Made by a program: the position numbers. From an uncultured bacterium (GTDB lineage: Bacteria > Oederibacteriota > PGYV01 > CAWJRG01): DNA of 64,000 bases. The stretch spans positions 608,001 through 672,000 of the forward strand of contig CAWJRG010000010.1 of assembly GCA_963845185.1 (NCBI GenBank), written 5' to 3'. Each line of letters begins with the position of its first letter. Positions within the stretch are counted from its first letter, which is position 1. Positions 36,001-39,000 of the stretch are shown here, in pieces.

Positions 36001-39000
36001 ACGAGCCTGCCTTTTCTTTTGTCAAGGCAGAAATCGGATAATTGCAGTTGATAGTGACAGCTTTAAGCTTCTTCCCGCCGCCAAGGGCATAGACCATCTC
36101 GGTTTGCGCCGGAGAAAGCGAAACAATACTTTTTACCGGTAATTTGATATCTGTTTTTCTTCCGGCATCATCAGTTATAATTTCAGCATGCGCTGAAATT
36201 ATACAGAAAAAGGAAATAAAGAAAACAAACCCGGTGCTTCTTAATAAATTAATTTTCATCAGTTAAGCGCTCCTTATTACTTAAAAATTCTGCATATAAT
36301 TTTACAGGCGGATAATGAAGCACCTTTCGGCAGGAGGGAGTAATAGCGGTTTTAAAATAAAAAACCCGGCAACCTGCGCCGGGAATGGAATCATAATTTT
36401 GCTATATTTTCCCTTTGTGCGAAGGTACTAACCTGTAAACTACAGTGGACCGGGCTACCCTTTCGGGATTACCGTTGCGACACAGCGCCCTGAATTTCAC
36501 AGGGACTTCCTCTGTAATAATGGTTCTGCCAGAAACTTAGCATAAACAGCAGTCGGCTGTCAACAACTTTCTTATATTGTTTTGTTTTGATTGTCAATTT
36601 CATACATAATATTTTATACTGGAGCCCCATCACGCGCATGCGCGTAGTACCAGTTAACGGCATACGACTCTTTTCCGTCCTGAGCGAGTCGTGGGACTCG
36701 CTTTCTGCCCGCCGCTGCTAATCTAACGCTTGCCGTTGTGGCAGTAATATGACCTACATGAAGCAGAATGCGTAAGGTATTGGTAAATAAAATATATGCG
36801 CATAAATTTATTGGATTGCTTTTGGCCCTATCCCCGCGTCCGCCATCTGCATGGTGTACTCCAGCATATGGTATGCTGCTGAGGCGTCGTCCGGTATCGT
36901 GACGATATTTATGGACATGGGCGAAAAAGTTATTTTCCTGGGCTTGAGTTTTTCGACCGCAAGCGTCAGGACCCTCTTCACTGTATCTTTGTTGACGACC
37001 AGTATTGCTGTGGCTGCCTTTTTTCCGTCGTAGCTCGCATATACAGACATGCCATCAGGCGCCTCAGACGGCTTGACTGATATGCCGCTGAAGTTTGTGT
37101 CCACCATTTGCTGGACGTAATATTCAGGCGTGAGTTTATATGTCACCGGATTTTTTGTTGGGTCAGTCAGCACAAACCCGAAGACAGTAAAGTTTGCGCT
37201 CTGTACAGGCTCGGCAAGTTCCCAGAACGAGAAGTTCCAGAGCCCTGCCTCGAGCGCGGCGCCCATCCTGTCCGCGTCCCAGATGGCCGCGTAGAATGTC
37301 CCGGGCCCTACCTTGCGTGTCTCCGGAGTGTATAAATTGGTATTAGCGTCGTAGCAGACGCTTGCCTCGGTGATGGCCAGCTGCGTGCCCGACTTTCCGT
37401 GTTTTGCTATTCGGTTTTTTACGCTCTGGACAAACTCCGGAAACCCGTCTATATCATTTAGCACGCCCGCTTCAGTGAGCTCCCGTGCGGAAAAACCATA
37501 ATGATGTATGCTCACTATGTCGATGTAGTCCTTGCACCCGTCGAGCATCGGGCTCAGCCAGTCATTGCCATCATTGTATTTGGCGCCGAGCTCCGGCCCT
37601 ACGAATTTAATATCCACGCCGCTGTGCGCCTTTTCATTGGCGTCCAGCATTGCCTTTGCGTAGGAATTGTAGATAGCGGCATATTCGGACACGGTCGTAA
37701 CAGGCAGGCCTGTTTTCCTTTGAAAGAATACATCATATATATCCACCTCGTCGCCTATGCTCCAGTACTTGACCCCGTACTTTTTGGTGCCGTTTATATA
37801 GGTGACAATGTCCGCCGCTCCCTGCGCCGAGGTCTTGCCGCCATCCTTGTTGTTTCCGTAAACAGGTACCATCATGATAGGCTCTGCGCCTGTTGCGCGG
37901 CAATATTCTATAAACTTATCCTCCTGGCTATTGTCGAAAAGCTCAGGACTGTTCGCGTCGTTTTGGTTGTCCGCGCCTACAATTACGTTAAGTTTCAGCG
38001 CCTTGACAGGCTCCTCTGATCCCTTTAACCCGACCAGGCCGTTTTTGTTCCAGTCTATCCAGTCAAAGTAGCAGCTGCCGAAAGCATAGGGTGATATTGG
38101 GACACCGTTGTCCCGGCTTATCTTTACCGTCTTTATCTGGGCGCCGGCTTTTGCTTTGTCAAAAAAAGCGCCTCCTGTGCCTGCCGCCTCAACCTGACCT
38201 ATTTCCAGGACAGAATCGCCTGTGATCCTTGGCATAAAAGTAATGCCCTTGGTCAACTTCAGGTCCATGCTGTGCCCCAATCGCGCGCCGGCCGGTGTGT
38301 AATATGGGTCCTTTTGGAATGATGAAAATGGGAGCGTGACTTCTGTCCAGTCCCCGGATGATACCTGGAACACTGTGCCATACTGCACGTTAAATGAGTC
38401 CTTCAAAGACATCTGCACGTTGCCTGCCGCGCTTGATTTTATTTTAAATTTGAAACAGGTATTTTTGGAAAGGTCGGAAACCGGGACATTGCGTCCAATG
38501 CCGCACCACCCGCCCTTGGCCAGGCTGTAGGTAAGCTTTACTGCCTTTTGTCCGTCGGGCCCTGTCTCAAGCACAGCGTCACACCTGGAGCCCATAGAGT
38601 CTGCGAAAGTCCCAAGCATCTGGAAAGGGCTGGTAAACCAGTCCTCGATTATCCTGCCGTTTGAAGTAGAAACTATTATTACAGGCGTGGGTGCCGCGCC
38701 CGCTGATGCTTTCCCGGCTGCCTCGATGGGCCCGATTTCCACGGTTGAGTCTCCGGTAATTTCCGGCTGCAAATTCATGCTTTTGGTCATGGTGAGGTCC
38801 ATGGCATGCCCGGGTATCGCGTCCGGCGGCGTGTAATAAGGGTCCTTGTTAAAGGATGAAAAAGGAACCGTGACTTCTGTCCAGTCCCCGGATGAAACCT
38901 GGAACATGGCGACATACTGCACGTTGTATGAGTCCTTGAGCGCTATTTGCACTTGCCCGTCCGCGTTTGACCTGGCTTTGAACTTGAGTGAATTGTCTTT

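Follow-up and report, generated by a model that had tools for sequence, protein, structure and literature searches.

Organization of the leader and its operons

The window, the whole 64-kb stretch of contig C10 analyzed here, carries on its minus strand an operon of B12 uptake and salvage genes (29720..36259) that is preceded by a structured leader. Based on open reading frames and Pfam domains, the operon starts with a Peripla_BP_2 (BtuF-like) gene (35387-36259) and continues with a TonB-dependent receptor (33375-35372), a PF01902 protein (32631-33320), a His_Phos_1 (CobC-like) protein (32030-32629), CobU (31516-32058), CobT (30456-31514), and CobS (29720-30490), all on the minus strand. The survey's finding had named btuB as the first gene; the Pfam assignments instead place the BtuF-like periplasmic-binding protein first and the TonB receptor second. 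We considered the PF01902 gene as a conserved member of the regulon and rejected it: of the 24 class genomes, 4 have the gene, and the three besides this one carry it away from the riboswitch.

The leader element occupies approximately 36525-36355 of the minus strand, with the coordinates and sequence previously described, and consists of an aptamer of about 115 nt, then the P13 hairpin, then an intrinsic terminator. A covariance model of the aptamer (R1) matches 36430..36525 with 113.4 bits. The terminator (36354..36383), already recognized in the survey, is a stem-loop at 36383-36365, with a stem of 7 pairs that include 6 G-C pairs, and then the T run UUUUUUAUUUU; the start codon of the BtuF-like gene lies about 95 nt beyond it. 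Each of the 24 related copies of the element likewise has a terminator behind it. Upstream is a possible promoter region (36534..36597, minus strand). The TTGACA hexamers on which a promoter had been proposed are indeed present, at 36597-36592 and 36563-36558, but each is accompanied by only a weak -10-like hexamer, and a scan for sigma-70 consensus promoters yielded none on the minus strand. In 20 of the 24 related copies, the 90 nt upstream include a -35/-10 pair that departs from the consensus at no more than 3 of its 12 positions, a count made without a shuffle control.

A second copy, at C9:197174-197299, lies upstream of a cobC-btuR-btuFCD-TonB receptor cluster, and thus the element precedes both B12 transport and salvage clusters of the genome, as had been reported. 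Across the class, the first downstream open reading frame could be assigned for 23 of 23 copies and encodes a CobC-like protein (18 copies), a TonB receptor (3), BtuR (1), or a BtuF-like protein (1). Beyond the class, 21 of 32 first open reading frames contain a TonB Plug domain, and 3 others are BtuF-like. These B12 uptake and salvage genes, found downstream in every class copy and in most cross-phylum copies, point indirectly to a corrinoid as the putative ligand.

Secondary structure and covariation

In the aptamer, P3 to P6 meet in a four-way junction; a B12 box is present, and a P2 arm is absent. P1 (36525-36522 with 36433-36430) is followed by the J1/3 internal loop, which among the copies has 2 to 4 nt on its 5' side and 4 to 6 nt on its 3' side and is flanked by helices, P1 and P3, that both covary. 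P3 pairs 36517-36512 with 36445-36440 and includes a further GGA (36510-36508) with UCC (36449-36447). P4 (36504-36500 with 36492-36488) is closed by the loop L4, UGAAAUU; P5 (36484-36483 with 36477-36476) presents L5 at 36482-36478; and P6 pairs 36474-36472 with 36453-36451. L6 contains one short P6-extension hairpin, CCC-GAAA-GGG (36458..36467), whose length varies among copies. The B12-box-like segment AGCCCGGUCCACUG (36443..36456) comprises J6/3 and the 3' strand of P3, and its AGCCCGG is invariant in the 23 class copies and aligns with AAGUCAGGUCUUU of the RF01482 consensus. Downstream, P13 (36412..36425) is formed by CCUU (36425-36422) and AAGG (36415-36412) around the loop L13, CGCACA (36421-36416). 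All of these parts are on the minus strand.

A minimum free energy fold gives P1, P3, P4, P6, and the P6 hairpin. The folding energy was no better than that of shuffled sequences, with z = -0.45 over 179 nt of the leader and z = +0.91 over 84 nt of the platform, so that thermodynamics alone gives the structure no support.

Support comes from comparative analysis, in agreement with the covariation noted in the survey. In the 23 class copies, 92.6% of the cells are paired, compared with 80.6% in shuffles and at most 50.6% in slid controls; 14 of the 30 pairs show two-sided changes, and RNAalifold predicts 27 pairs, 13 with double changes. The P6-extension hairpin provides examples, with GC10/CG6/GU3/AU2/UA1 at columns 66-89 and CG14/UA3/GC2 at columns 67-88, and both of these pairs change on both sides in a wider set of 56 sequences from many phyla. 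In that wider alignment (A2), which was fitted to the model's own structure and consequently favors nested helices, 90.7% of the cells are paired (71.3% in shuffles), 23 of 31 pairs show changes on both sides, and the covariation score is 0.555 versus at most 0.187 for slid structures. All 4 pairs of P13 change on both sides in the 56 sequences, and RNAalifold columns 123-134 read CG17/UA4. Covariation was found in P3, P4, and the P6 hairpin. P5, P6, and a large part of the core do not vary among the copies, which is compatible with pairing and means that covariation says nothing on those pairs.

The pairs of an L5-L13 kissing loop are absent from the model that built the 56-sequence alignment; about 79% of their cells are nevertheless paired, and either of two registers has 3 of its 5 pairs with changes on both sides. 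No single register fits all sequences, whether drawn without a bulge or with a one-nucleotide bulge in L13, the third pair being unpaired in 27 of 56 and 25 of 56 sequences, respectively. The element thus has the core of the cobalamin clan CL00101, namely the four-way junction, the L4 T-loop, and the B12 box, together with the clan's L5-L13 kissing loop, which takes two registers to account for all sequences.

Comparison with Rfam families and known cobalamin riboswitches

Rfam models at gathering thresholds returned no match in the 64-kb window. The survey had described the genome as free of Rfam riboswitches; this holds for the window with all families, and our genome-wide searches covered RF00174, RF01689, and RF01482. 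With the leader alone and E <= 10, we reproduced exactly the partial match to RF01689 on which the first assignment was based (19.8 bits, E 0.07, model positions 19-70 of 81, cutoff 36.5), and the C9 copy matches the same model over its full length with 24.6 bits. In genome-wide searches at E <= 10, the window copy had no match to RF01482 or RF00174. The C9 copy scored 29.9 bits with RF01482 (cutoff 50) and 13.4 bits with RF00174 (cutoff 31.5). A third RF01689 match, at C10:444417-444497 (16.5 bits, E 1.1), was found on reading to lack the core motifs and was taken as chance.

The related copies place the element closer to RF01482 (Cbl-IIb) than to the AdoCbl-II family RF01689 that had been proposed as nearest. 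RF01482 aligns over its full length (1-149) in most copies, with 28.6 to 58.2 bits, and is the top clan model for 16 of 20 tested copies; RF01689 is the top model for two class copies (L030, 23.9 bits; L036, 21.5 bits). Some family copies reach 21 to 30 bits with RF00174, the best 29.7. The RF01482 cutoff of 50 bits is passed by one of the 24 family copies (G010, 58.2 bits) and by 3 of 20 cross-phylum copies. The scores nonetheless support the survey's reading of a diverged cobalamin riboswitch below the Rfam cutoffs, as does the B12 gene context.

According to PMC7367189, Cbl-IIb riboswitches lack a P2 arm, their J1/3 is short and either mismatched or paired, and P6 is extended only slightly, as a rule by a short hairpin; as a class they are selective for adenosylcobalamin, and no structure was available as of 2020. 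In Cbl-IIa members, exemplified by env8HyCbl (PDB 4FRN/4FRG; PMC7367189), J1/3 is bulged and T-loop-like, and L6 is usually a simple loop (PMC7367189 and PMC6158498). PMC6158498 also mentions the E. faecalis example of RF01482. The element has the architectural features of Cbl-IIb: no P2 arm, a short J1/3, and a small P6 hairpin. Neither the window copy nor the C9 copy reaches the 50 bits set for RF01482. Against Cbl-IIa, L6 carries a hairpin in place of a simple loop, J1/3 is short in place of bulged and T-loop-like, and the 19.8 and 24.6 bits fall below 36.5. Cbl-I would require a P2 loop-stem-loop, a large P6 extension, and at least 31.5 bits; neither part is present.

The prototype of RF01482 comes from the Enterococcus faecalis eut locus, in the setting of an ethanolamine-utilization sRNA. 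The element and this family share the missing P2 arm, the short J1/3, the short P6 hairpin, a shortened box, AG[UC]C[AC]GGUC, a T-loop-like L4, GUGA.AUUC, and a P13 whose UUCG...-type loop has L5 as its kissing partner; in the RF01482 consensus, the short box reads AAGUCAGGUC, and the L6 hairpin and P13 are present as well. They differ in P6 (CGG/CCG in the element versus CUG/CAG), in P5/L5 (UGU-CGC-GCA versus GGU-CCC-GCC), and in the length of P13 (4 pairs versus about 12), and the element is predicted to be a cis terminator switch at B12 uptake and salvage genes, unlike the ethanolamine-utilization sRNA. With RF01689 (Cbl-IIa), the element shares the compact four-way junction, the L4/P5/P6 core, and the P13 kissing loop, differing in its L6 hairpin, its short J1/3, and scores under 36.5 bits. 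RF00174 (Cbl-I, e.g., E. coli btuB) has in common with it the core, the B12 box, the kissing-loop logic, and the regulon (btuB, cob), but the element lacks both the P2 loop-stem-loop and the large P6 extension. The atypical Bacillus subtilis yvrC riboswitch, as described in PMC7367189, likewise has a small P6 hairpin extension and a P13 kissing loop, yet it keeps a Cbl-I-type P2 arm that the element does not have. We agree with the survey that this is a variant of a known compact riboswitch type and no new riboswitch class.

Distribution in the class and across phyla

The covariance model of the aptamer matches exactly 2 sites in this 3.5-Mb genome and detects the element in 19 of 24 class genomes, including 16 of 17 of high quality. 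The survey's BLAST counts (20 of the 24 genomes, and all 17 of high quality) were reproduced as such; they exceed the model's counts by one genome, G012, whose match consists of only 28 nt of the terminator part (query 188-215). We therefore rejected G012 as a carrier of the compact element. Within 6 kb around this match, Rfam at E <= 0.1 finds only a tRNA.

RF00174 scores above its cutoff in only three class genomes (G001, G005, and G012), which are three of the five without the compact element. In G012, a P6-extended RF00174 riboswitch lies upstream of the same cobC gene, with a P13 and terminator of the same kind. MAFFT gave no alignment of the G012 leader with the compact leaders across the P6 insertion, so the orthology of the cobC leaders rests on reading the sequences.

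The element had been regarded as specific to the order; we found the same core signature at 120 or more loci spread over many phyla, and Rfam calls it in 6 of 40 tested cross-phylum loci. In other phyla, the aptamer adjoins the start codon within 0 to 12 nt.

Proposed mechanism and alternative readings

Taken together, the element is very probably a class II cobalamin riboswitch of Cbl-IIb architecture acting as a terminator OFF switch, with the second copy controlling the C9 operon. The most likely mode is B12-dependent transcription termination, in which we infer the ligand, the direction of switching, and the antiterminator. A bound corrinoid would lock the L5-L13 kissing loop and keep P13 closed, so that the CCCGGCG...UGCCGGG stem and its U run would form and transcription would end some 95 nt short of the start codon of the btuF-like gene. 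When no ligand is bound, the terminator's 5' half (CCC...GCG) would instead be paired with L13 and the P13 3' strand (CG...GGG); this antiterminator would allow the btuF/TonB receptor/cobCUTS operon to be transcribed. When related leaders were folded after being cut before the 3' strand of the terminator, at least 5 nt of its 5' half paired with L13 and the P13 3' strand in 23 of 24. The mean number of such pairs was 5.8, versus 3.6 with shuffled heads, and the per-sequence shuffle fractions ranged from 0.02 to 1.0, which gives the putative antiterminator modest support.

Alternatively, the element may function like a Cbl-IIa riboswitch (RF01689, env8-like), preferring methyl- or hydroxocobalamin over adenosylcobalamin or being broadly promiscuous; we consider this unlikely, at about one chance in a few. 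The only listed Rfam match of the window copy is to RF01689, the model that the C9 copy matches over its full length and that is best for L030 and L036. Class II members span a wide range of AdoCbl/MeCbl selectivity, and the ligand form is thus not fixed by architecture alone (PMC6158498). Yet the L6 hairpin and the short 5' strand of J1/3 (2 to 4 nt) are Cbl-IIb features (PMC7367189), and RF01482 is the best model in most of the tested copies. In addition, a gene for a corrinoid adenosyltransferase is part of the C9 operon, which implies that AdoCbl is made in the cell.

The eut-locus prototypes of RF01482, EutX and Rli55, are riboswitch-controlled decoy sRNAs. The terminated short transcript could by analogy act in trans as such a decoy rather than, or in addition to, acting in cis: RF01482 is the nearest Rfam family, every copy is followed by a strong terminator, and the window start codon lies well beyond it. 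However, each copy sits immediately before B12 transport or salvage genes and in the same orientation, and the spacing of 0 to 12 nt in other phyla is typical of cis translational control, making this reading highly improbable. ANTAR-type dual hexaloop decoy sites were not seen, although no search was aimed at them. Equally hard to credit is a conserved leader that senses a non-corrinoid ligand or binds a protein and resembles the B12 core through shared ancestry only. Such a leader would fit scores below all three Rfam cutoffs and a ligand deduced from context, but the conserved cobalamin-core positions in L4, P5/L5, P6, and the box are kept in the RF01482/RF01689 alignment (GGAAGU...GUGA.AUUC...GCUG...CGCAACGGUAA...AGCCCGGUCCACUG). 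Furthermore, the regulon is B12 specific across phyla, and the distribution in the class is complementary to that of RF00174.

Implications for B12 regulation

As a Cbl-IIb riboswitch, the element would be the missing regulator for both B12 uptake and salvage operons of this genome. It also bears on annotation, since cutoff-based Rfam searches under-report B12 riboswitches: 1 of 24 class copies passes, and of 40 tested loci from many phyla, most of them uncultivated, only 6 are called. Statements that such genomes have no B12 riboswitch or no B12 regulon are consequently unreliable. The collected sequences provide many natural Cbl-IIb examples and could be used for re-seeding RF01482.

More broadly, and tentatively, since we hold it to be somewhat short of an even prospect, the element may belong to a large cross-phylum compact class II subfamily with the signature GCUGNNNCGCA(A/G)CGGUAA, a short hairpin, and AGCCCGG, located mostly before TonB-dependent receptors and called by Rfam 15 in a minority of cases. 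Within the class, the compact form occupies the cobC leader at which relatives have a P6-extended class I riboswitch, and on this reading class I and class IIb would interconvert in place. If this is true, class I and class IIb are not separate lineages, and the P6 extension has been lost or gained in place.

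Architecture and class assignment

The predicted B12 riboswitch lies on the minus strand of the window, in the gap bounded by a CBM-containing gene (end 36808) and an ORF (start 36259). Helix P1 (36525-36522 with 36433-36430) is followed by an internal loop and then by P3 (36517-36512 with 36445-36440), which is extended by GGA (36510-36508) pairing with UCC (36449-36447). P4 (36504-36500 with 36492-36488) closes a UGAAAUU loop, the short P5 carries L5 at 36482-36478, and P6 (CGG 36474-36472 with CCG 36453-36451) has a hairpin within its loop, CCC-GAAA-GGG, at 36467-36458. The box AGCCCGGUCCACUG spans 36456-36443, P13 forms a hairpin at 36425-36412, and the terminator stem-loop at 36383-36365 has a U run directly after it. 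In the upstream portion of the same 548-nt intergenic region there is also a perfect 7-bp hairpin, GCGAGUC-CCAC-GACUCGC (36701-36684, minus strand), with no U run after it; the transcript of the CBM gene upstream possibly ends there.

The survey's finding was a diverged cobalamin riboswitch that Rfam does not call. We confirmed that the window has no Rfam match at gathering cut-offs and that the leader, at E<=10, matches RF01689 (AdoCbl-II, Cbl-IIa) at 19.8 bits. We then scored 20 copies from the class against all Rfam. The best model of the cobalamin clan was RF01482 (AdoCbl, Cbl-IIb) for 16 of the 20, with full-length matches (1-149) of 28.6-58.2 bits; the RF01482 cut-off of 50 bits is passed only by the copy from genome G010. 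RF01689 was best for two copies and RF00174 (the classical riboswitch, Cbl-I) for another two, every score being below cut-off. Against RF01482, locus L052 scored 40.2 bits and copy G014b 36.3 bits, and the copy from genome G041 had no match at E<=0.01.

The element shares its plan with the RF01482 consensus: a single long outer helix without a P2 arm, GGAAGUC, a GUGaaAAUC L4, a three-pair P5, a short hairpin in the P6 loop, a shortened box (AAGUCAGGUCUUU), and a P13 hairpin whose loop reads UUCGAGG. By the definitions of PMC7367189, J1/3 is short and P6 bears a short hairpin in Cbl-IIb, J1/3 is bulged and the loop is simple in Cbl-IIa, and Cbl-I has a P2 arm as well as a large P6 extension; an L5-L13 kissing loop is common to all three. 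The element fits Cbl-IIb by its predicted architecture, though below the RF01482 score cut-off, because both the RF01482 plan and the definitions in that paper match. The riboswitch class is an already known one with an Rfam model, whose cut-off some relatives exceed.

Covariation of the aptamer and the kissing loop

We aligned 23 class copies and counted pairs for the structure read from the sequences. Paired cells made up 92.6%; shuffles gave 80.6%, and slid structures no more than 50.6%. Both sides change in 14 of 30 pairs, and RNAalifold independently returned 27 pairs, 13 with double changes, adding the GGA/UCC extension of P3; the covariation reported earlier is therefore upheld. Taken alone, the folding energy of the leader is unremarkable (z = -0.45). 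From this alignment we built a covariance model, R1, which matched the 3.5-Mb genome at two sites and nowhere else.

In a 56-sequence alignment from many phyla (A2), 23 of 31 pairs have double changes, which occur in every nested helix that varies, and the covariation score is 0.555 versus 0.196 in shuffles; these values are biased in favor of nested helices, as A2 was fitted to the nested structure. The L5-L13 pairs were absent from the model that produced A2, and the two loops covary in alignment columns both within the class and across phyla. In A2, the pairing begins with two invariant C-G/G-C pairs and continues with three variable ones. The five pairs are formed in 79.6% of cells without a bulge and 78.9% with a one-nucleotide bulge in L13, double changes are seen at three of the five in either register, and at the third pair each register suits roughly half of the sequences.

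Expression platform

A terminator hairpin and T run follow all 24 family copies. We folded each leader from L13 to the terminator loop, omitting the 3' strand of the terminator. At least 5 nt of the terminator 5' half paired with L13 and the P13 3' strand in 23 of 24 copies, and the predicted fold of the window copy has the same alternative pairing. Mean pairing was 5.8, against 3.6 with the 14-nt head shuffled (per-sequence shuffle fractions, 0.02 to 1.0). These predicted folds modestly support an antiterminator that would compete with P13 and the kissing loop. If the element works like described cobalamin riboswitches, binding of the ligand would lock L5-L13, freeing the terminator and turning the operon off. 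Class-II members cover a broad range of selectivity, according to PMC6158498, and the ligand form (AdoCbl versus others) is not readable from sequence.

Distribution within the class and phylum

The class corresponds here to the order (24 genomes). R1 matched 19 of its genomes, including 16 of the 17 high-quality ones. The survey had counted 20; that BLAST count was reproduced, but the match in G012 is just 28 nt of the terminator part. Across 99 genomes of the phylum, R1 matched 20, G041 being the only one outside the class. RF00174 exceeds its cut-off in 72 of the 99, comprising 69 of 75 outside the class and only 3 of 24 inside it (G001, G005, and G012). The compact element is missing from five class genomes, these three plus G006 and G011 (both 82-83% complete). 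In G012, a P6-extended RF00174 riboswitch (60 bits) precedes the same CobC-like gene, with a similar ACCUUCG...AAAGG hairpin and a terminator after it, which suggests that at this leader one form takes the place of the other. We found no description of this particular lineage in the open-access papers searched.

Several loci carry more than one element. On one contig of G041, 3.5 kb separates an RF00174 riboswitch from a compact copy (L064 247-4130). At L074 (921-1347), a compact copy is followed 134 nt on by an RF00174 riboswitch, ahead of a single TonB receptor, and at L080 (1455-1931) two compact copies stand in series ahead of a single receptor. Genome G014 uses two class-II subtypes, since a compact copy is followed, 2.2 kb downstream, by an RF01689 riboswitch that passes its cut-off (40.0 bits; L065 4506-4593, G014:C72); the ORF directly after the latter appears MetE-like from its N terminus. 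In an unclassified MAG record, a compact riboswitch is preceded, about 260 nt upstream, by an Acido-Lenti-1 RNA (RF01687, 40.5 bits, cut-off 37; L068 64-109).

Occurrence in other phyla

We scanned for the exact pattern GCTGNNNCGCARCGGTAA, then 6-36 bases, then AGCCCGG, which gave at least 120 loci. Sequence records for these name Actinomycetota, Chloroflexota, Omnitrophota, Elusimicrobiota, Planctomycetota, Aminicenantes, Desantisbacteria, candidate division FCPU426, Goldiibacteriota, Victivallales, Proteobacteria, and Paenibacillus. The element is thus widespread in the order, as claimed earlier, but not confined to it. DNA was obtained for 80 loci, in which R1 had 73 matches at E<=0.01, 28 of them above 74 bits over the full model.

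Forty of the 80 were scored with Rfam, in two sets of 20. Among those picked for diversity, Rfam at gathering calls the site in three, all as RF00174. Among those picked for high R1 scores, three pass RF01482 (50.6-54.0 bits), eight match it at 41.2-48.3 bits, and at the remaining nine sites no clan model matches at E<=0.001. Rfam thus calls the element at 6 of 40 loci.

Genes behind the riboswitch

The window operon encodes, in order, a BtuF-like periplasmic binding protein, a TonB-dependent receptor, a PF01902 protein, a CobC-like phosphatase, CobU, CobT, and CobS. The PF01902 gene (Diphthami_syn_2, ATP-pyrophosphatase-like; 32631-33320, minus strand) sits between the receptor gene and cobC; only 4 of 24 class genomes have this family, and in the other three it is not close to the riboswitch. 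The second copy (C9:197174-197299) precedes CobC-like, BtuR, BtuF-like, BtuC-like, and BtuD-like genes, with a TonB receptor downstream. This receptor (L187 4937-7000) is broken into three successive ORFs, one with the Plug domain (4937-5977) and two with barrel pieces (5992-6354 and 6266-7000); a frameshift, gene decay, or an assembly error may account for this.

We recorded the first downstream ORF of at least 70 codons for each copy. Inside the class (23 copies) it is CobC-like in 18, a TonB receptor in 3, and BtuR and BtuF-like in 1 each. Outside the class (n=32, leaving out L115, whose short flank has no ORF), it has a TonB Plug domain in 21 (one also with Peripla_BP_2), Peripla_BP_2 alone in 3, DUF1559/N_methyl in 3, His_Phos_1, ExbB, and DUF4430 in 1 each, and no family in 2. 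The DUF1559 protein, not a transporter, is first at L137 (1706-2530), L126 (736-1458), and L134 (584-1453), with an additional pilin-like N-terminal methylation motif at L137 and L126; it looks like a B12-regulated protein of unassigned role. In many copies from other phyla the ORF starts 0-12 nt past the end of the R1 model, where in the class a terminator follows instead; in these, P13 probably hides the ribosome-binding site.

This case adds a measure of how often Rfam cut-offs miss the compact architecture, a distribution complementary to RF00174 inside the class, and, for the source genome, two unannotated regulators.
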